64,000 nucleotides of DNA from the NCBI GenBank assembly GCA_963743915.1, contig CAVURN010000001.1, positions 32,001-96,000 on the forward strand. The letters are read 5' to 3'. Below, one piece after another: positions 20,755-32,580 of this stretch (its first letter is position 1; every line of letters begins with the position of its first letter). The notes under the pieces are model-generated. The model ran no database searches, was not told the DNA's origin, and saw only the letters and a list, made by a program, of their open reading frames with translations. The translations under genes and the position numbers were made by a program. The DNA comes from an uncultured Actinomycetota bacterium (GTDB lineage Bacteria; Actinomycetota; Actinomycetes; JAHEKZ01).

Positions 20755-20889
20755 GAAGTGAGAACGTCACTCGGATGCCCCTCGGCTCCGCGTGGAGAAC
20801 TCGCCTGCTGCGCAGCGCGGGCTAGCATCGAACAGGTCGACGTCCGACGGCGATCTGCGACCGAGTACCACCCAGAAGGAGACGCGCAG

Positions 20890-23433
20890 ATGTTCGAGAG
20901 GTTTACCGACCGCGCCCGACGGGTGGTCGTGCTGGCCCAAGAAGAGGCCCGCATGCTCAACCACAACTACATCGGCACCGAGCACATCCTGCTCGGGCTG
21001 ATCCACGAGGGCGAGGGCGTGGCCGCGAAGGCGCTCGAGTCACTCGGGATCTCGCTGGAGGCGGTCCGTCAGCAGGTCGAGGAGATCATCGGCCAGGGAC
21101 AGCAGGCACCCTCGGGGCACATCCCCTTCACGCCCCGCGCCAAGAAGGTGCTCGAGCTCTCACTGCGTGAGGCGCTGCAGCTGGGGCACAACTACATCGG
21201 CACCGAGCACATCCTGCTCGGGCTCATCCGCGAGGGTGAGGGTGTTGCGGCGCAGGTGCTCGTCAAGCTGGGCGCCGACCTCAACCGGGTGCGTCAGCAG
21301 GTGATCCAGCTGCTCTCCGGCTACCAGGGCAAGGAGCCGGCCACGGCGGGCGGACCGCAGGGCGAGAGTGCCCCGTCGTCGTCCCTGGTCCTGGACCAGT
21401 TCGGACGCAACCTCACGCAGGCTGCCCGGGAGAACAAGCTCGACCCGGTCATCGGGCGTGAGAAGGAGATCGAGCGGGTCATGCAGGTGTTGTCCCGCCG
21501 CACCAAGAACAACCCGGTGCTGATCGGTGAGCCCGGAGTCGGCAAGACGGCGGTGGTGGAAGGTCTGGCCCAAGCGATCGTCAAGGGCGAGGTCCCGGAC
21601 ACCCTCGAGAACAAGCAGCTCTACACACTGGACCTCGGCGCCCTCGTCGCGGGCAGCCGCTACCGGGGTGACTTCGAGGAGCGGCTGAAGAAGGTGCTCA
21701 AGGAGATCCGCACACGCGGCGACATCATCTTGTTCATCGACGAGATGCACACGCTCGTCGGTGCCGGCGCGGCCGAAGGTGCCATCGACGCCGCCAGCAT
21801 CCTCAAGCCCATGCTGGCGCGTGGTGAGCTGCAGACGATCGGCGCCACCACGTTGGACGAGTACCGCAAGTACGTCGAGAAGGACGCAGCGCTCGAGCGG
21901 CGGTTCGCCCCGATCCAGGTGGACGCCCCGGACGTGGACATGACGGTCGAGATCCTGCTGGGCCTGCGTGACCGCTATGCAGCGCACCACCGCGTCAACA
22001 TCACCGATGAAGCCATCAAGGCTGCGGCGCGCCTGGCAGATCGCTACATCTCCGACCGTCAGCTGCCCGACAAGGCGATCGACTTGATCGACGAGGCCGG
22101 TTCCCGGCTGCGCATCCGCCGCATGACGGCTCCGCCGGATCTGCGCGAGTACGACGAGCGCATCGGTGACGTCCGCCGTGAGAAGGAGGCGGCGATCGAC
22201 GCCCAGGACTTCGAGAAGGCGGCGTCACTGCGCGACCAGGAGAAGCAGCTGCTGGGTGAGCGCGCCCAACGCGAGCGCGAGTGGCGCAGTGGCGGCATGG
22301 ACACCATGCCGGACGTCGACGAGAAGCTCATCGCCGAGGTCGTCGGTCTCATGACGGGGATTCCCGTGTCGGACCTGTCCGAGGACGACGCCAAGCGCCT
22401 CATGCGCATGGAAGAGGAGCTGCACAAGCGGGTCGTCGGTCAGGAGCAGGCGATCAAGTCGCTGTCGAAGGCGATCCGCCGCACCCGCGCCGGGCTGAAG
22501 GACCCCAAGCGCCCCTCGGGCTCCTTCATCTTCGCCGGACCGTCCGGCGTCGGGAAGACCGAGCTGTCCAAGGCCCTGACCGAGTTCCTGTTCGGCGACG
22601 AGGACGCGCTCATCGCCCTCGACATGAGCGAGTACAGCGAGAAGCACACGGCGTCTCGACTCTTCGGCTCGCCCCCCGGCTACGTCGGGTACGAAGAGGG
22701 TGGCCAGCTGACCGAGAAGGTGCGGCGCAAGCCGTTCTCGGTGGTGCTCTTCGACGAGGTCGAGAAGGCGCACCCGGACATCTTCAACTCGCTGCTGCAG
22801 GTGCTCGAAGAGGGACGCCTCACCGACGCCCAGGGTCGCACGGTGGACTTCAAGAACACCGTGATCATCATGACCACGAACCTCGGCAGCCGTGATGTCT
22901 CCAAGGGCGTCAACCTCGGGTTCGCGGCCAGCGGCGACACCACGACGGCGTACGAGGCCATGAAGTCGAAGGTGCAGCAGGAGCTCAAGCAGAACTTCCG
23001 TCCGGAGTTCCTCAACCGCATCGACGACATCATCGTCTTCCACCAGCTGAGCGAGGAAGAGATCGTCAGCATCGTCGACCTGATGGCGGCCAAACTCGAG
23101 GAGCGCCTGAAGGACAAGGACATGGCGATCGAGCTGACCACCCCGGCCAAGCTGCTGCTCGCGAAGAAGGGCTACGACCCGGTGCTCGGAGCACGGCCGC
23201 TGCGTCGCACCCTGCAGCGCGAGCTCGAGGACCAGCTCTCCGAGCAGATCCTGTTCGGTGAGCTCACCCCCGGCTCGATCGTGGTCGTCGACGTCGAGGG
23301 TGAAGGCGAGTCGGCGACGTTCACCTTCAAGAGCGAGCCCCGCGCCACGCTGCCCGACCACCCTGATCTGACGGCGGTCGAGGCTGCGGGCGAGCTGGGG
23401 GACGCGGGAGCGGCGGCCACCAGCGACGACTAG
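20890..23433 (+). CDS. clpC: ATP-dependent Clp protease ATPase ClpC1
   Basis: [20 protein letters not shown]; two Walker A motifs ([16 protein letters not shown]); UVR domain; SD GAAGGAG. Confidence 0.98.
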
Positions 23434-23444
23434 CTGCTGGCGGC

Positions 23445-24326
23445 TCAGGGCAGCCGGTACGCCCCGGCGGTCCCCTTCACGACCAGACCGTCGGCGAGCA
23501 GGCTGGTCAAGGCTCGGGTCCGCTGGGCGTCGTCGTCCCACGCCGCGTCGAGTGCTTCCTGCGTCACCTGCCCCTCGGCGTCCCGGAGCACAGACAGCAG
23601 CCGTCCACGGCATTGCCGGTCGGTCCCGGCATAGCTCTGGCCACGGCGGGCAGCTCCGTCCCATGCCGGGGACCCGGCTGCGCGCCAGGCGCACCGCGAG
23701 CTGATCGGACACGTGTCACACGCGGGCGCCCGCGCCGTGCACACCAGTGCTCCGAGCTCCATGAACGCGATCGACGCGCGCGCCGCGTCGAGGGGCGACG
23801 ACGGCAGCAGATCCAGGGCGCGCTGACGCTCAGGTGAGGTGACCGTCGCCGAGCGAGGGTGCATGGAGCCGTCGAGCCAGCGGGCGTGCACGCGTCGCAC
23901 GTTGGTGTCGAGCACCGGCTGCCGCTGACCGAAGGCGAACGCCGCGACCGCTGCTGCCGTGTACTCCCCGACGCCAGGAAGCGATCGGAGCTCGGCCACG
24001 TCCGCCGGGACCCGGCCGGAGAAGCGCTCGACGCAGACCTGGGCTGCGGCGTGCAGCCGGAGTGCGCGACGGGGATACCCCAGTCGCCCCCACATGCGTA
24101 CGGCGTCGCCCGGTGCGTCCGCGGCGAGGTCGGCCGGCCGGGGCCAGCGCCGCATCCACGCGTCGTACGCGGGCAGGACGCGGGCCACCGGCGTCTGCTG
24201 CAGCATCACCTCGCTGACCAGGACGCCCCACGGGTCGGGTTCAGACCTCCACGGCAGGGTGCGCGCAGCCGTGTCGTACCAGCGCACGAGTGCGGCGACG
24301 GCAGCGCTGTGGTCGTCCGGGCTCAT
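23445..24326 (-). CDS. mutY: A/G-specific adenine glycosylase
   Basis: LPWR, LVSEVMLQQT, WGRLGYPRRA, LPGVGEYTA, DTNVRRV and the C-x6-C-x2-C-x5-C Fe-S motif. Confidence 0.95.
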   Translation of the reverse strand: MSPDDHSAAVAALVRWYDTAARTLPWRSEPDPWGVLVSEVMLQQTPVARVLPAYDAWMRRWPRPADLAADAPGDAVRMWGRLGYPRRALRLHAAAQVCVERFSGRVPADVAELRSLPGVGEYTAAAVAAFAFGQRQPVLDTNVRRVHARWLDGSMHPRSATVTSPERQRALDLLPSSPLDAARASIAFMELGALVCTARAPACDTCPISSRCAWRAAGSPAWDGAARRGQSYAGTDRQCRGRLLSVLRDAEGQVTQEALDAAWDDDAQRTRALTSLLADGLVVKGTAGAYRLP

Positions 24327-24389
24327 CCTGGCCATCGTGGCATGCCCGCAAACGGCACGCCGATCCGTCGACAGCCCTAGGCTGGCCAC

Positions 24390-25022
24390 GTGGTGCTCCG
24401 TCCTGTCGGCGACCTGCCGGCCAGCGTGTACTGGGTCAGGCGGCTGCTGCTCCTCCTCGTCGTGGTCGTGGTGGTGGCCCTCGGGTGGTGGCTGCTGCCC
24501 TTCGGCGATGACGGCAACGACACCACCACGACCCCGGCCTCGGTGTCCTCGGTGTCACCCACGCCGACGCCCAGCAAGACGAAGTCGCCCAAGCCTGAGC
24601 CGTCGGAGACGCCCACGAAGACCGAGGCCGTCGCACCGGACTGCCCCGACTCTGCGATCGCCGTCACCGTCGAGTCCGATGCCGAGACCTATCCGGCAGG
24701 CCGGTCGCCCAGCTTCACCCTCGCGGTCGAGAACGTCTCGAAGGAGACGTGCACCCGGGACGTGGGACAGTCGGCGAACGAGCTGCGGGTCACCTCCGGC
24801 GGAGCCCAGATCTGGTCCTCCGACGACTGCAACCCCGGTGGCGCCTCGGATCCGTCAGAGCTCGACCCGGGAGACCGCTTCGTCCAGACGGTGCCGTGGC
24901 CGCGTGAGGAGTCCCAGCCGGATTGCCCGACACCGCCGGAGACGGCACCACCGGGGACGTACCAGGTGGTCGCCCGCAACCTCGAGATCCTCAGTGAGCC
25001 GGTGGCCTTCGTGCTGGAGTGA
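24390..25022 (+). CDS. Conserved actinobacterial membrane-anchored protein (mutY-disA locus)
   Basis: RPVGDLPASVYWVRR + TM + P/T linker + Cys-paired Ig-like domain (IWSSDDC, PGTYQV). Confidence 0.85.
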   Translation: MVLRPVGDLPASVYWVRRLLLLLVVVVVVALGWWLLPFGDDGNDTTTTPASVSSVSPTPTPSKTKSPKPEPSETPTKTEAVAPDCPDSAIAVTVESDAETYPAGRSPSFTLAVENVSKETCTRDVGQSANELRVTSGGAQIWSSDDCNPGGASDPSELDPGDRFVQTVPWPREESQPDCPTPPETAPPGTYQVVARNLEILSEPVAFVLE

Positions 25023-25057
25023 CGTTGCCGCGGCGGGCTCGCGGTGATGGGCGCACG

Positions 25058-25084
25058 CTCAAGGTCCGTCCCGTTCCAGACGAC
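25058..25084 (+). promoter_or_regulatory. Possible FliA/WhiG (sigma28)-type promoter of the che cluster
   Basis: CTCA-N17-GACGAC resembles the actinobacterial FliA-family consensus CTCA-N15-17-GCCGAA (4/6 match at -10). Confidence 0.3.
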
Positions 25085-25135
25085 ATCTGTCTGTACATGA
25101 GACGGCGCTCGGTGACGCCGTTGGCGGGAGGACCG

Positions 25136-26359
25136 GTGCCGGCGTCACACGCATCCCACGACACGGGGACGGTGGGGGCTGCACCTCGTGGCGCCCCGGT
25201 GGTGGTCGCGGTCGTGGCCGGCACCCGCACCCGGATCAAGGTGCTTGAGAAGCTGCTCAACCAGCCCGGACTCATCGTCTGCGGCAGCGCCCAGGAGCCG
25301 GTCGCGGCCGAGGAGCTCGTCGTCGCCTCCCAGCCGGCCGCCGTCCTGCTCGATCTCGACCTCTGGAGCGGCGGGTTGGAGGCCATCGAGCGGATCATGG
25401 CGACCCGCGCCACTCCGATCGTGGTCATCGGACCTGCCGCTGAGCACCCGGAGGCCGCCATCGCCGCAGGGGCGGTCGACGTGGTCGGCGCCCTGGACGT
25501 CGCACCGGGCTCCGCCGAGTACTCGACCATGGTGATGCGTCATCTCAAGATCGCCAGTCGGGTCAGGGTGATCACCCATCCCCGCGGCCGGCTTCGTGGA
25601 CGCGGCCTGCGCGGCGCGGCGACGCCACCGATTCCCACCCGCCCGCCCGAGCCCGTCGGCGCCGTCGTCGAACCCGATCAGCCTGGCTCGCGCCCCACGA
25701 ACCTCGCACCGGAACGCGTCCGCCGCCATATGGCGCAGCGACCTCGCACGGTCGCCCCGCGGCAGGGACCATTGGTGGTCGCCATCGGTGCATCCACCGG
25801 CGGGCCGCCGGCACTCGCGACGATCCTCGCCGAGATCCCGCCGGAGCTGCCGGCCGCCGTGGTGGTGGTGCAGCACATGGCGGAGGGATTCGTCGAGGGC
25901 CTGGCCCGCTGGCTCGACGGCGTCTGCCCCTTGCCGGTCGTGGTCGCGGTCGAGGGGGAACGTCTGCAGCCCGGCCAGGTGTATCTGGCGCCGGCCAACC
26001 AGAACCTGGTCGTGCGCCCGGGCTTCCGGGTGGGGCTCACCGACCCCCCTCCCGGCCAGTACCACGTTCCCGGCGTCGACGTCACCTTCCGTTCGGTGGC
26101 GCAGGTGTCGGGGCAGTACGCGGTCGCCGCCCTGCTCACCGGGATGGGACGTGACGGCGCCGCCGGGTTGAAGGTCCTGCGCGACATCGGCGCCTTCACG
26201 ATCGGGCAGGACGAGTCGACGAGCGTGGTGTGGGGCATGCCCGCGGCCGCACAGGAGGTCGACGCGGTCGACCTCGAGCTGCCGCTCCCCGCGATCGGGC
26301 AGGCGATCGTCACGGCCGTCCAGCACGCCGTCGACGATGTGGTGGAGGTCGGGTCGTGA
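25136..26359 (+). CDS. cheB: CheB-type protein-glutamate methylesterase with degenerate N-terminal receiver
   Basis: GASTGG, VQHM, LLTGMGRDG and SVVWGMP; start uncertain (GTG 25136 after GGAGG; the ORF opens at 25019). Confidence 0.92.
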   Translation: MPASHASHDTGTVGAAPRGAPVVVAVVAGTRTRIKVLEKLLNQPGLIVCGSAQEPVAAEELVVASQPAAVLLDLDLWSGGLEAIERIMATRATPIVVIGPAAEHPEAAIAAGAVDVVGALDVAPGSAEYSTMVMRHLKIASRVRVITHPRGRLRGRGLRGAATPPIPTRPPEPVGAVVEPDQPGSRPTNLAPERVRRHMAQRPRTVAPRQGPLVVAIGASTGGPPALATILAEIPPELPAAVVVVQHMAEGFVEGLARWLDGVCPLPVVVAVEGERLQPGQVYLAPANQNLVVRPGFRVGLTDPPPGQYHVPGVDVTFRSVAQVSGQYAVAALLTGMGRDGAAGLKVLRDIGAFTIGQDESTSVVWGMPAAAQEVDAVDLELPLPAIGQAIVTAVQHAVDDVVEVGS

Positions 26360-27826
26360 TCGCCCGGGTCCTCACCGAGGAGGAGTACGAGCGGACGACG
26401 CAGACGCTTGTGCGTCTGGCTGGTCTCGTCTTCGACGTCAGCCGGCGTGGGGCGATCAGTGCGATCCTGCACGAGCGCCTGGAGGCGACCGGTCACCCCT
26501 CCGTGGACTCGTACCTGGCGCACGTCGAGTCATCGTTGGGACTCGAGGAGCGGCAGCAGCTGCTGGACGCGGTGACGATCCAGGAGACGCACTTCTTCCG
26601 CAACCTCCCGCAGATGGAGGCGCTCCGCCGGGACGTGCTTCCCGATCTGCTCAAGCGGAACCGCAGCACGGGGCGTCCGCTGACGATCTGGTCGGCCGGA
26701 TGCTCGACGGGTGAGGAGCCGTACACGCTGGCCATGCTCCTCGTCCAGCTGTTCGAGGAGACCGGTCCGTTCCCCGTTCGCATCGTCGGCACGGACGTGT
26801 CCGCCGCGGCGCTGGACGTGGCACGCGCGGGTGTCTACAGCGGCCGGACGATCCACCTGGCGGAGCCGGGCGCGGTGGACCGGTGGTTCGATGCCCGTCC
26901 GGACGACAGCTTCTCGGTGGCGCAACCGGTTCGTGACCTCGTCGAGTTCCGGCTGCAGAACCTGGTCGCGGACGAGCCGCCGTTCGGGCCCGGTGAGGTC
27001 GACCTGGTCGTGTGCCGCAACGTGACGATCTACTTCGGGCGCGAGACGACCCGTCGCCTGGTCGACGGCTTCCACCGGCTTCTGACGCCAGGGGGCTACC
27101 TGCTGCTCGGCCACGCCGAGACGCTGTGGCAGATCTCCGACTCCTTCAGCCTCGCTTCCGGTCGGCGAGGCGTTCGTCTACCGCAAGGAGGTGCAGGCGT
27201 CGCCCGGCAGAACGCCCTCGGTGCCGGCGGCTGCGCCCGGCGCCGCCCCTCGTCCGACTGCTCCGCGCCGGGTGATGCGCGATGTGCTCCGGGTCCCTGG
27301 TCTGCGGCCGAAGCGTGCGCCGGAGCCCGCACGTCCCGTGGCACCCCCGATCAGCTCGATCCCCTCCCCGCTCGAGGACCTGATCAGAGCGCGCGAGGCG
27401 TTGGCTGCCGGCAGCTACGCCGAAGCCGCGACGCTGGCCGACCGGGCGACCGCGACACACCCTCTGCTCGTCGAGGGCTACATCATCGAAGGCCGTGCGC
27501 TCGCCAACCAGGGGGATGACGACGGTGCCATCGCCGCACTGCGCAAGGCCGTCTTCCTCGACCCCACGGCGGCACATGCTCACTTCCTGCTGGCCACGAC
27601 GCTCTCGCGCGTCGGCGATCCGGCCGGGGCGGCACTGTCGTTCGCCGCCGCTGCCGAGACACTGCCGTCCGCCTCGCCGGAGACGCTGACCGAGCTGCTT
27701 GATGGTCGTGCCGTCTCCGATTTGGTAGACCTGTGTCGTCAGCTCGCCGTCAGCCTGCAGCCGCCACCGAAGCCCTCGGTCGGCGTGGGGACGGTTGCCT
27801 CGGAGATCGGACGGAGATCGGTGTGA
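26356..27826 (+). CDS. cheR: CheR-type methyltransferase with C-terminal TPR (one +1 frameshift near 27155)
   Basis: TIQETHFFRN, IWSAGCSTGEEPY, CRNVTIYF and LLLGHAE; TPR segment ALRKAVFLDPTAAHAHFLLA in the shifted frame. Confidence 0.9.
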
Positions 27827-28236
27827 GCGGCTACATCACGTTCCGCATGAATGGCCGAGACCTCGCCTGTCCGCTGGACGAGGTGCGCGAGGTCGTGCGC
27901 GCGGTGGGCATCGAGCCGCTGCCCGGTACCCGGGCGCCGGTGAGCGGGATGATCGAGCTGCGCAACGACCCGCTGCCTGTGGTCGACCTCCGGTCGGACG
28001 CCTACCCGGGCGAGGAGGGCGACGTCCTCGTCCTCAATCCTGCCGAGGGCGGGATGTACGGCGTCGCCGTGGACCGCGTGCTTGCCGTGGTCAGCGACGA
28101 CGACCTGGTGGCCGACGAGGCGGCGACGCCGGCCGGGCTGCCGCCCTACGTGACCCAGGTCCTCCGGCGGCCGGAGGACAGGGCGCCTGTGATGCTGGTG
28201 GCCCTGCGCGTGCTGGCCGGCCTCGAGGCGTCCTAG
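27823..28236 (+). CDS. cheW: CheW-like coupling protein
   Basis: [34 protein letters not shown] and GVAVDRV; GTGA overlap. Confidence 0.88.
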
Positions 28237-29339
28237 ACGTACCGTTCGAGGATGCTCGACTCCGCGAGCCGGGAGAGCCCCTCGCGCACGGTGCGGGCGC
28301 GTGTCTCGCCGACCCCCTCGACGGTCTGCAGGTCGTCGATGCTGGCCGCCAGCAGCCGCTGCAGGCCACCGAAGCTGTCGACGAGACGGTCGACCACGGT
28401 GCTCGGGAGTCGAGGCACCCGAGCGAGCAGCCGGTACCCGCGAGGGCTGATCGTGAGATCGAGGACATCGGGGTTGCCGGAGTAGCCCAGCGCCTTGGCG
28501 ACGAGGGAGAGGTCGAGCAGCTCGACGTCGGAGAGGTCGTCGAGCTCGCCGAGCACCCGCTCGACGGTGCGCGTGCGGCGTCCTCCCGTGGGCAGGTAGT
28601 CGCGGACCACGAGCTCGCGGTCCGCATCGACCCCGCTGATCAGCTCGACGAGCTGCAGCGCGAGCAGGCGCCCGTCCGAACCGAGCTCGATGACGTACCC
28701 GTCGATCTCGCGGGCGATCCGGCGCACCATCTCGAGGCGTTGGGCGACGACGGCGACGTCGCGGACCGAGACGAGGTCCTCGATCTCGAGGTCGGAGAGC
28801 GTGCCCGACACCTCGTCGAGCCGAAGCTTGTACCGCTCGAGGGTGGCCAGCGCCTGGTTGGCGCGGGAGAGGATGGCGGCGGAGTCCTCGAGGACGTAGC
28901 GCCTTCCTGCGACGTACAGGGCGATGATGTTCATCGACTGGCTCACCGAGATCACCGGGTACCCGGTCTGCTTGGCGACCCGCTCGGCTGTCCGGTGGCG
29001 GGTGCCCATCTCGTCGGAGCTGATGCTGGGGTCGGGCATCAGGTGGACGGCGGCCCGATGGATGGTGGTCGCGTCGTGCCCGAGGATGATCGCGCCGTCC
29101 ATCTTGGCCAGCTCACGCAGCCGAGTGGCCGTGAACTCGACGTCGAGGGTGAAGCCGCCGCTGCACAGCTCCTCGACGTCCTTGTCGTACCCGAGGACGA
29201 AGAGCCCGCCGGTCCGTCCACGGAGGATGCGCTCGAGGCCGTCCCGCAGGGAGGTGCCGGGGGCGACGGTGGCGAGCGTGACGAGCAGCTGCGTCTCGGC
29301 GTCGGCAGCCGCCGTCTTGTCGCTGGACGCCACGTGCAC
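28233..29339 (-). CDS. disA: DNA integrity scanning diadenylate cyclase DisA
   Basis: [13 protein letters not shown]; DGA and RHR catalytic motifs; C-terminal HhH (VEGVG). Confidence 0.97.
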
Positions 29340-29365
29340 TCTCCCCGCTCGGTTGCGACGGGAGT

Positions 29366-30746
29366 CTAGCGGCGCACGACCTCGGCCAGCGCGACAGCCA
29401 GGGCGTCGTGGATGTCGGTCACGGTCGTGACCGACATGCCTTCAGGGACCGGGCCGTCGTAGGCCGGGATGAGCGCGTGCCGGAACCCCAGCCGAGCCGC
29501 TTCGACCAGACGACGGTCGATCCCGGGCACGGACCGGACCTCGCCGGCGAGCCCGATCTCGCCGAACGCCACGAGGTCGCTGGCGAGCGGCCGGTCGAGG
29601 TAGGCGCTGGCGATCGCCATGATGAGCGCCAGGTCGGAGGCCGGCTCCCGCAGCTGCACGCCGCCGACCGTGGCCGCGTAGATCTCCGAGGCGACGAGCG
29701 GGACGCGCGCCCGCCGGGTGAGGACCGCCACCACCATCGCGAGTCGCGAGGAGTCCAGGCCCGAGCTGGTGCGCTTGGGCGTGGTGGCGGCAGAGGGGGA
29801 CACCAGAGCCTGGACCTCGACGACGAGCGGGCGTCGTCCCTCCAGGGTGACGGTGACGCAGGTGCCCGGCACCGGGGTGCTGTGGCGCTGCAGGAACAGC
29901 CCGCTCGGATCGGTGACGCCCTCCACCCCGTGGTCGCTCATCGTGAAGCAGCCGACCTCGTCGGTGGGGCCGTAGCGGTTCTTGGTCGCCCGGCCGAGCC
30001 GCAGGGGGCTGTGCTGCTCGCCCTCGAAGGTGAGGACGACGTCGACGAGGTGCTCGAGCAGGCGGGGGCCGGCGACCGAACCATCCTTGGTGACGTGGCC
30101 GATGAGCACGGTGGCGATGGCGCGCTCCTTGGCGAGGCGGATCAGGGCGCTGGCGACCTCCCGGACCTGCGTGACGCCGCCCGGCGTCCCCTCGACGTCA
30201 GGGGCGGAGACGGTCTGGACCGAGTCGAGCACCAGCAGCCCGGGAGCCACGGTGTCGACCTGACCCAGGACGGCCGCGAGGTCGGTCTCGGCGGCGAGCC
30301 AGAGGTTGGCGTGGACGGCGTTGATGCGGTCGGCGCGGAGGCGCACCTGCGCGGCGGACTCCTCACCGGTGACGTACAGCGTGGTGACCCCTGCGCGCGC
30401 GGAGCGGGCGGCCACGTCGAGCAGCAGGGTGGACTTGCCCACGCCGGGTTCACCGGCGAGCAGGACCACGCCTCCGGCGATGAGCCCGCCGCCGAGGACG
30501 CGGTCGAGCTCGTCGACGCCGGTGCTGCGGGACCGCGCGATGTCGACGTCGACCTCGAGGATGGGACGCGCCGGCGTGCTGACCGGGCCGGCCGTCACCC
30601 CGCGTACCCGCGGACCCGGCCTCGTCGACCGTGCCCCAGGCCTGGCACTCGCCGCACCGGCCGACCCACTTGGTGGTCGTCCAGCCGCACTCGGTGCAGC
30701 GGTAGTCGGCGCGTGCGCGTCGTGCCGGACGCGGGTTGCTGGTCAT
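29366..30746 (-). CDS. radA: DNA repair protein RadA/Sms (one +1 frameshift near 30600)
   Basis: Zn finger [17 protein letters not shown] in ORF 30450-30746; [14 protein letters not shown] and Lon-like tail in ORF 29366-30598; SD AGGAGGAG. Confidence 0.95.
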
Positions 30747-30815: not shown

Positions 30816-31583
30816 CTAGGAGGAGCGACGGGTCCGCTGGGGGTCGGCGGCAGCTGTGGTGGCGGGGTGCGGAGCCGGTTGGTTGCCGGCGGCGAGGCGC
30901 TCCTCGCAGAGCCGTACCAGCTGGGCGTAGGCCGCCTCGCCCATGAGCTCGACCAGCTCGTCGCGGCTGCTCAGGTACACCGGTTCGCGCCCGACGTGCG
31001 CGTCGGTGTTGGCCGTGCAGTACCAGTCGAGGTCGTGACCCCCCGGCCCCCAACCGGGCCGGTCGTACTCGCCGACGGAGATCTCGAGGTACTCGGTGCC
31101 GTCGGGCCGTTCGACGTGGCGGTAGGTGCGCCGGATGGGCAGCTGCCAGCAGACGTCGGGCTTGGTGGTGACGATGCTGATGCCTCGGTCGAGCGCCAGC
31201 TTGTGCAGGGCGCAGCCGGGACCGGCGGCGAACCCGGGACGGTTGAGGAAGATGCACGCCCCGTCGACGACCCGCGTCTTGCGTCCCCCTTCGTCGTCCT
31301 TCTCGGTGATCTTCTCGGCGCCGTGGAACTGCCAGTCGTCCGGTCCGAGCTCCTTGGCCCACTTCTTGACCCGCTTCTCGTCGTCCTTGTCCGAGAAGTG
31401 GGCGCCGAGGGTGCAGCACCCGTCGTCGGGGCGTCCGGCGTAGATGCCCTTGCAGCCCGACCCGTAGATGCAGGTCCAGCTGCTCGTGAGCCAGGTGAGG
31501 TCGCAGCGGAAGACCTGGCCGGTGTCGACGGGATCGGTGAACTCCACCCACACTCTGGGGAAGTCGAGGTTCACTTCAGGCAC
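30816..31583 (-). CDS. Conserved Cys-rich putative Fe-S/Zn protein (DUF3109-like)
   Basis: [33 protein letters not shown] and KPDVCWQLP; divergent from ppx. Confidence 0.85.
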
Positions 31584-31626
31584 GAGGGTCAGCGTACGGC
31601 GCGCGGAGCGGGGTAGCGTCAGCGGC

Positions 31627-32580
31627 ATGGACGGCGGTACGGGCTCAGGCGTGCGGCTCGGCGTCCTCGACGTCGGCTCCAACACCGTCCACCTGCTCGT
31701 GGTCGACGCCCACCACGGGGCGGCACCCCGGTCGGCGTACTCGTACAAGACCGAGCTGCGTCTCGCAGAGTTCCTGGACGCCGATGGCGGCATCGCCCCC
31801 GGGGGCATCGCTGCGCTGACGGAGTTCGTCGGTGAGGCGGCGCGCGTGGCCGAGGAGGTGGGAGCGGAGGAGATGCTGGCCTTCGCGACGTCGGCGATCC
31901 GCGAGGCGTCGAACGGGGAGGGGGTGCTGCGTGCGGTTCGGGCCGCGACCGGGGTCGACCTCGAGGTGCTCTCCGGCGCCGACGAGGCGCGGCTCACCTT
32001 CCTGGCCGTGCGTCGCTGGTACGGCTGGTCGAGCGGTCGCCTGCTGGTGCTGGACATCGGAGGTGGCTCGCTGGAGGTCGCGGTCGGCGACACCGAGGAG
32101 CCCGATGCCGCCTTCTCGCTGCCGCTCGGCGCCGGACGCCTCACGCGAGAGTTCCTGACGGAGGACCCACCCTCATCGGCAGAGGTGAAGCAGCTGCGCA
32201 AGCACGTGCGCACGCTGATCGCCGACCAGCAGGACGTGATCGCGTCGGTTGCCGATGCGGGGCACGTGGTGGGCACGTCGAAGACCTTCCGACAGCTGGC
32301 TCGGCTGACCGGAGCGGCCCCCAGCTCGGCGGGACCCTACGTCCAACGTCTGCTCGACCGGGACGCTCTGTCGGACTGGGTGCCGCGCCTGGCGCGGATG
32401 CCCGCCCGCCACCGCGCCCAGCTCCCGGGGATATCGATCACGCGCGCACCCCAGCTGCTGGCCGGTGCCGTGGTCGCGGAGTCCGTCATGGCGGCGGTGG
32501 ATGCGGTGTCCCTCCAGATCTGCCCCTGGGCCCTGCGCGAGGGAGTGATCCTGCGCCGGCTGGACTGGATGGGCCAATGA
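31627..32580 (+). CDS. ppx: Ppx/GppA exopolyphosphatase
   Basis: [29 protein letters not shown] and WALREG. Confidence 0.93.

Follow-up and report, generated by a model that had tools for sequence, protein, structure and literature searches.

The cheB-cheR-cheW gene trio at the junction between mutY and disA very probably encodes the adaptation half, together with an extra CheW, of a single non-flagellar chemosensory pathway of the alternative cellular function (ACF) type that is encoded at two loci. The trio lies in the 64-kb stretch of actinomycete DNA analysed here (the window), which corresponds to C1:32001-96000 of a 2.92-Mb, 5-contig assembly (genome G000) with a completeness of 90%. 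The 'kinase-less' CheB-CheR-CheW trio of uncultured actinomycetes would then be part of a complete two-locus pathway and not a new switch. The pathway, for which no flagellar genes were found, appears to be widespread, with carriers in at least nine actinomycete families from sediment and soil. The evidence consists of gene and domain content, catalytic residues, copy numbers, conservation and co-occurrence, all of which were observed directly.

Kinase and receptors at a second locus

The original prediction had pointed out that the 64 kb hold no kinase or receptor, and it had offered two readings of the trio: a split system with partners elsewhere, or a stand-alone glutamate-methylation switch. 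A Pfam profile search of the window agreed with the observation, as it gave no MCPsignal match and no further CheW-domain match. We then considered the whole genome with the same kind of profile search. It contains a single CheB and a single CheR, which are those of the window, nine MCPsignal matches, all of them outside the window, and three CheW domains. On the minus strand of contig C5 we found, in this order, cheW, five tandem MCP genes (MCP, methyl-accepting chemotaxis protein), cheA with a receiver domain (REC) and a REC-GAF response regulator:

C5:224095-226305, minus strand: cheA-REC, 736 aa, with Hpt, HATPase_c, CheW and REC domains
C5:223054-224013 (L014:9054-10013), minus strand: REC-GAF regulator, adjoining cheA
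C5:227135-235250 (L014, L015): five tandem MCP genes

Four further MCPs are encoded outside the C5 cluster. The CheA has a single Hpt and a single CheW domain, and with the window cheW the genome has a second coupling protein. The finding that had been named beforehand as speaking against a stand-alone switch was a cognate set of cheA and MCP genes at some other place in the genome. Such a set is present on C5, and therefore we read the trio as one part of a split system whose partners are the C5 cluster and the four other MCPs.

The receptors carry plausible substrate sites for the two enzymes. The strict site [ST]A[TS]x[EQ]ELAAT was found 99 residues before the hairpin tip in 4/5 of the tandem MCPs read and in 3/4 of the others. 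In the tandem MCPs it reads SATIEELAAT, and looser sites containing Q occur as well. The five tandem genes share a 3' half of 740 nt that is identical at 738-740 of the 740 positions, and their N-terminal multi-span membrane parts differ. The near-identity of the 3' halves looks like concerted evolution of this signalling module, by gene conversion.

The biochemical steps and the cellular output are deduced from sequence as follows. Membrane-embedded MCPs, bridged by the CheW proteins, would control the autophosphorylation of CheA, and the phosphate would pass to the kinase's own receiver and to REC-GAF, the presumed output. CheR-TPR would methylate Glu residues of the MCPs at the heptad sites; CheB would demethylate these sites and deamidate encoded Gln residues, and receptor sensitivity would be reset in this way. 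In this lineage CheA probably exerts little or no feedback on CheB, whose receiver retains just the phospho-acceptor Asp. A predicted complex of the TPR part (27191-27826) with the last 60 residues of a tandem MCP gave no answer (score 0.02) and is evidence neither way.

The REC-GAF regulator is the most conserved protein of the C5 cluster, with 94-95% identity across the genus compared to 83-84% for CheA, and it adjoins cheA in 7/7 same-genus loci. In a PDB sequence search with this protein only the receiver part was aligned among the 60 of 228 matches listed.

Several points weigh against a two-locus pathway of this kind. In the window cheR-TPR is frameshifted, and the CheR frame that begins at 26356 runs on out of frame until it stops at 27519. 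Canonical control of CheB by CheA is doubtful, since the acidic pair, the Thr/Ser and the Lys are all missing from the CheB receiver. Pfam H-kinase_dim (PF02895) gave no match in the genome; after that search the CheA was located via its CheW, Hpt and HATPase_c domains, and the NCBIfam profile CheA_Halo aligns, below its cut-off, across ~70 residues upstream of the ATPase domain. As the genome is 90% complete, a second CheA, CheB or CheR may exist. Finally, the 30 genomes in which we looked for a co-occurring CheA (see below) had been selected for their CheB scores and are relatives of one another, so that their agreement does not amount to a statistical test.

The trio in the window

The block consists of the following features:

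25136-26359, plus strand: cheB, methylesterase/deamidase; Pfam CheB_methylest (PF01339), 193 bits; degenerate N-terminal receiver
26356-27153, plus strand: catalytic part of cheR, SAM-dependent methyltransferase; CheR domain (PF01739), 178 bits, profile positions 1-193/195
27154, plus strand: extra G that breaks the cheR-TPR frame; absent from relatives and from metagenome contigs
27155-27826, plus strand, +1 frame: Pro/Ala-rich linker and TPR domain of CheR; TPR_16, TPR_2 and TPR_14 matches
27823-28236, plus strand: cheW, 137 aa; CheW domain, 60.7 bits, profile positions 2-127/138

Three coupled genes with intact methyltransferase motifs had been described for this block. The coupling stands: reading the sequence directly, we observed GTGA overlaps between cheB and cheR (26356-26359) and between the TPR open reading frame (ORF) and cheW (27823-27826), and the domains were recovered by the profile searches. 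What does not stand for the window is a cheR-TPR gene in one frame, and for the methyltransferase the CheR domain was confirmed with a frame that is broken at 27154. All genes of the block except cheR are open frames. The cheB gene starts with GTG at 25136, with a GGGAGGA motif 3 nt upstream. At the other end the cheW stop does overlap the convergent disA stop, as had been stated, since the palindrome CTAG is common to the TAG of cheW (28234-28236) and the stop of disA on the minus strand (28233-35). For CheA, CheB and CheR the NCBIfam profiles gave only matches below the cut-off, and nothing for CheW. A promoter and terminator scan of 23400-29500 returned 0 sites of either kind, which is uninformative for an actinomycete with 70% G+C in this region.

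Frame of cheR and insertions in the assembly

We compared the window to related loci and to metagenome contigs around position 27154. The TPR part of CheR sits in the +1 frame (ORF 27191-27826), and the window has one surplus base at ~27154 relative to 8/8 aligned relatives. In the relative L016 the gene is a single ORF of 491 aa with CheR at 76-268 and TPR at 345-423, and the two parts share a frame in 65/69 loci. Logan contigs from 4/4 sediment-metagenome runs (4 studies) drop one letter at 27154; these contigs were aligned over window positions 26400-27900, and the pieces covering the site are ~99% identical to the window. The depths of the sequence without the letter were 23.3/23.3, 18.2/20.5, 8.24/8.24 and 8.55/8.55 in the four runs. 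Without the G the sequence reads FSLLPVGEAFVYRK, which matches the relatives.

The same kind of insertion was encountered on C5. In 3/5 of the tandem MCP tails we found an extra G, with 'CTGTCGCTCC' in place of 'CTGTCCTCC', and it changes '...SSSIAQFK...' to '...LLHRPIQNHRR'. The insertions in cheR and in the MCP tails are of like form, with the G placed inside TC_CT ('CCTC[G]CTTCC' and 'CTGTC[G]CTCC'), and because they share this form they are most simply explained together by a systematic error of the assembly. We conclude that the extra G at 27154 is probably an assembly error. In the MCP copy that precedes cheA the extra G bypasses the MCP stop, and because of this the assembly shows an open 'MCP-CheA' frame of 1335 aa (C5:224095-228102). 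We rejected an MCP-CheA-REC fusion on these grounds; once the extra G is removed the TGA of the MCP overlaps the ATG of cheA, and the CheA frames of relatives have 740-790 aa. Single-G insertions in the assembly thus make both false frameshifts and a false MCP-CheA fusion. The N-terminus of the tandem MCP at C5:233316-235250 is also out of frame.

These data bear on the possibility that the trio is a decaying remnant, that is, a non-functional block of pseudogenes. Taken at face value, the 1-nt insertion would strip the last conserved CheR strand (FVYRK motif) and uncouple the TPR domain in the window, and the degenerate CheB receiver could be read in the same direction. Decay is nevertheless highly improbable: the base is missing from the contigs of every one of the metagenome runs, its counterpart in the MCP tails argues for a systematic error, the catalytic triad of CheB is invariant in all orthologues aligned, and the remaining genes of the block are open.

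Catalytic triad and receiver of CheB

The Ser, His and Asp of the methylesterase, reported as intact in the original prediction, align to the catalytic residues of chain 1a2o, which we take to be numbered S164, H190 and D286, and all three are invariant in 71/71 orthologues. A different picture emerges for the N-terminal receiver. The Response_reg profile (PF00072) scored 26.6 bits, under the Pfam cut-off of 30.2. In the window CheB, AG stands at the acidic pair, G at the Thr/Ser site and G/A at the Lys site, whereas the phospho-acceptor Asp is invariant (71/71). Across the 71 aligned sequences the acidic pair is AG in the window CheB and 24 others, and the Thr/Ser site is Gly in 65. The Lys is absent in the nearer relatives of the window. 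DD is kept in 25/71 sequences, nearly all of which also have the K; these are the more distant actinomycete sequences and those of three other phyla. The graded loss of the receiver (from DD...K to AG...G) offers a natural series for studying the control of CheB without phosphorylation.

Position of the trio between mutY and disA

The borders of the insertion site and the ORF next to the trio are:

23445-24389, minus strand: mutY-like adenine glycosylase with HhH-GPD, HHH and EndIII_4Fe-2S domains; left border
24390-25022, plus strand: conserved ORF of 210 aa; weak DUF4232 match, 16.6 bits, below the cut-off
28233-29339, minus strand: disA (c-di-AMP synthase) with DAC, DisA-linker and HHH domains; right border

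A CheB scan with one genome per species gave 79 loci, whose neighbouring genes were identified by tblastn; many of the loci end at contig ends. In 77/79 loci cheR follows cheB. The TPR part was found in 69 loci, cheW in 66, mutY in 67 and disA in 56, and in 50/79 loci mutY, cheB, cheR, cheW and disA occur together. The loci are labelled Actinomycetes, Frankiales, Mycobacteriales, Nanopelagicales, Sporichthyaceae and Jiangellales, and they include the cultured Longivirga aurantiaca. In the CheB-negative genomes of the class (15 published) mutY abuts disA in 13/15, with or without the 210-aa ORF, which bears out the claim that the trio is inserted at this site. As judged from this synteny, the position of the trio is old and fixed. 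The 210-aa ORF was observed in 57/79 loci and lies between mutY and disA in 6/15 of the CheB-negative genomes; it is a neighbour of the che block and no obligatory member of it. It gave no NCBIfam match.

Had the window lost the rest of an operon, relatives could be expected to retain it, and the original prediction had raised this case too. The tblastn queries for the 79 loci were CheA, the cytoplasmic domain of the MCPs, REC-GAF and the second CheW (CheW2). Within 6 kb of cheB no cheA, MCP or REC-GAF gene was found in the 76 actinomycete-type loci. A complete operon at the site in relatives was therefore rejected; the weak matches that did occur were few and hit unrelated kinase-like stretches, the receiver of CheB or the cheW present in the locus itself. 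Larger gaps between cheW and disA were seen in 10 loci, and their Pfam-matched ORFs are GGDEF, GlnR-type, GT4, ADH, NMO and DUF2071. There is no che gene among the ORFs scanned in these gaps, and the remaining ORFs matched nothing. In one case (L060:8937-10589, minus strand) a gene with a GGDEF domain and a GlnR-type regulator stand between cheW and disA. The full actinomycete synteny was also seen in two metagenome-assembled genomes labelled Acidobacteria and Bryobacterales (L042 and L094), whose contigs may be mis-binned.

Co-occurrence of CheB and CheA

We then compared the distribution of CheB to that of CheA. In the order to which the window belongs (one family, 20 genomes) CheA was found in 20/20 genomes and CheB in 19/20, and the sole miss is 69% complete. 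At class level 150/301 sampled genomes had some CheB match, a count that takes in the unpublished genomes G048, G050, G054 and G270. We also took the 30 genomes from other families that scored best for CheB, which cover 8 families and 21 genera; each of them contains an orthologue of CheA-REC, at 58-71% identity. By comparison, an orthologous CheA was found in 0/20 of the CheB-negative genomes listed, with 131 more lying outside that list; three of the 20, the unpublished G060 among them, gave partial CheA matches at 31-39% identity. In 7 genomes (G017, G004, G150, G080, G147, G205 and G076) CheB and CheA share a contig, at a distance of 247-496 kb. Longivirga aurantiaca CGMCC 4.7317 has the trio between mutY and disA (L041) and an orthologous CheA at 62% identity, which lies ~330 kb from the trio provided that C8 is the same contig, and as a cultured carrier it makes the pathway testable.

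Outside the actinomycetes we found the same parts list in a different arrangement. In a Brocadiaceae contig (L091, 307-9484) homologues of cheW, cheA-REC, cheB, REC-GAF and cheR form one cluster of ~9 kb, with REC-GAF matched over its full length. In L089 (Planctomycetota) and L092 (Acidobacteriota) cheA-REC lies beside cheB, and the REC-GAF query matched at its receiver part only; cheR was matched in L092 and not in L089. These are single clusters, compared to two loci here, and their CheB proteins are only 33-38% identical to that of the window. Their CheB receivers are canonical (DD...D...K). On this distribution the two-locus split is old and common to many related actinomycetes.

The co-occurrence also bears on a stand-alone switch, in which CheB and CheR would reversibly methylate glutamates of a non-MCP substrate independently of any kinase. 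Such a switch would explain why neither the 64 kb nor the 6 kb around cheB in the 76 actinomycete-type loci contain a kinase or receptor, and independence from CheA would fit the degenerate CheB receiver. It leaves unexplained why CheB and CheA co-occur so strictly (30/30 versus 0/20) and why the block includes a gene for CheW. Moreover the genome encodes one CheA and nine MCPs, the majority of which have consensus sites for methylation, and the window's CheB and CheR are the only pair available to these receptors. We regard the stand-alone switch as extremely unlikely.

A variant of the two-locus pathway would have the adaptation enzymes doubly uncoupled from the kinase, with methylation set by control from the disA/radA neighbourhood and not by CheA feedback. 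The uncoupling would be genetic, in that the trio has long been fixed at mutY-disA, convergent with disA and often without a spacer, and biochemical, in that the CheB receiver has neither the metal-binding pair nor the Lys while the phospho-Asp is invariant. Control might be exerted, for example, by DNA-integrity or c-di-AMP signalling via convergent transcription. If this were true, chemosensory memory would be written by a housekeeping checkpoint locus; we consider it very unlikely.

Class of the pathway

By analogy with classified systems, the gene content points to an ACF-like, non-flagellar pathway. An excerpt of PMC3447774 names CheR-TPR proteins with few repeats and multidomain response regulators, including GAF fusions, as marks of ACF clusters. 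Here both a CheR-TPR fusion and a multidomain response regulator (REC-GAF) are present. The link between a TPR-bearing CheR and non-flagellar systems, which the original prediction had drawn, agrees with that excerpt. For flagellar systems we searched the 90%-complete genome with FHIPEP (FlhA) and Flagellin_N and found no match to either; in Longivirga aurantiaca FlhA gave no match.

A flagella-centred survey (PMC10746217, in excerpt) lists ACF systems in six flagellated actinobacterial species and assigns 40H receptors to ACF. The MCP arm of our receptors measures ~129-137 residues from tip to C-terminus, which suggests 38H-40H; at ~19-20 heptads by our own length estimate the arms are near the 40H of the surveyed systems. 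Two differences from the systems in that excerpt were noticeable: those occur in flagellated species, whereas our searches turned up neither a flagellar export gene nor a flagellin, and here the genes for adaptation keep a fixed place between mutY and disA, apart from the kinase. Our literature search found no description of this actinomycete system, which is not proof that it is unpublished.

Another class to be considered is that of the type IV pilus (Tfp) systems. If the split pathway were Pil-Chp-like, it would serve to steer type IV pili and not to control an alternative cellular function. The genome does have a type IV pilus-like locus (C2:104240-115909, L110), which encodes a DUF4388 protein, PilB-like (MshEN and T2SSE), PilT-like and PilC (T2SSF) proteins and a protein with an N-terminal methylation motif. 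This locus, the lack of matches for FlhA and flagellin, and a CheA with a C-terminal receiver, as in Tfp-class CheAs (PMC10782961), would suit such a role. According to the same study the Tfp and ACF classes account for ~93% of multi-Hpt CheAs, and in Tfp the multi-Hpt forms predominate. Set against this, our CheA has one Hpt, the che loci on C1 and C5 are unlinked to the pilus genes, the presumed output is REC-GAF and not a single receiver of the PilG/PilH type, and CheR-TPR is tied to ACF clusters in the excerpt of PMC3447774. A Tfp-class pathway is thus unlikely. Seven T2SSE ATPases were counted in the genome as a whole.

Comparison with Wsp and Frz

The Wsp system of Pseudomonas presumably consists of WspC (CheR-TPR), WspF (CheB), WspB and WspD (two CheW proteins) and WspE (CheA-REC). 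The likeness to the present pathway is considerable: in both, a CheR with a short TPR part and a CheB are combined with two couplers of the CheW type and a CheA that has a receiver at its C-terminus, and the output is non-flagellar. The outputs differ, since Wsp uses a REC-GGDEF cyclase (WspR). No such output was found here, where the neighbour of cheA is REC-GAF and the scanned ORFs of the cluster contain no GGDEF domain. In addition Wsp is one operon, compared to two loci 247-496 kb apart, it has one receptor (WspA), compared to nine with multi-span membrane sensors, and the CheB receiver here is degenerate.

For the Frz system of Myxococcus xanthus we assume FrzF to be the CheR-TPR, FrzG the CheB, FrzA and FrzB the two CheW proteins and FrzE the CheA-CheY. 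Both systems have a CheR-TPR, a pair of CheW paralogues and a hybrid kinase that joins CheA to a receiver. The differences are the membrane receptors, in place of cytoplasmic FrzCD, and the dual-receiver FrzZ, which was not seen here. The window CheW spans profile positions 2-127/138 and is not obviously truncated in the manner of the FrzB-like form.

Further genes of the flanks

Beyond mutY and disA the flanks contain the following genes:

20758-23433: clpC with Clp_N, two AAA modules and UVR
29366-30598, minus strand: radA-like gene, 5' of disA, with AAA_25/KaiC-type ATPase and C-terminal ChlI/Lon_C matches
31468-32580: Ppx/GppA phosphatase gene, right flank

The name radA was assigned from the domain architecture and the position of the gene. 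The order clpC-mutY-disA-radA is presumably that of other actinobacteria.

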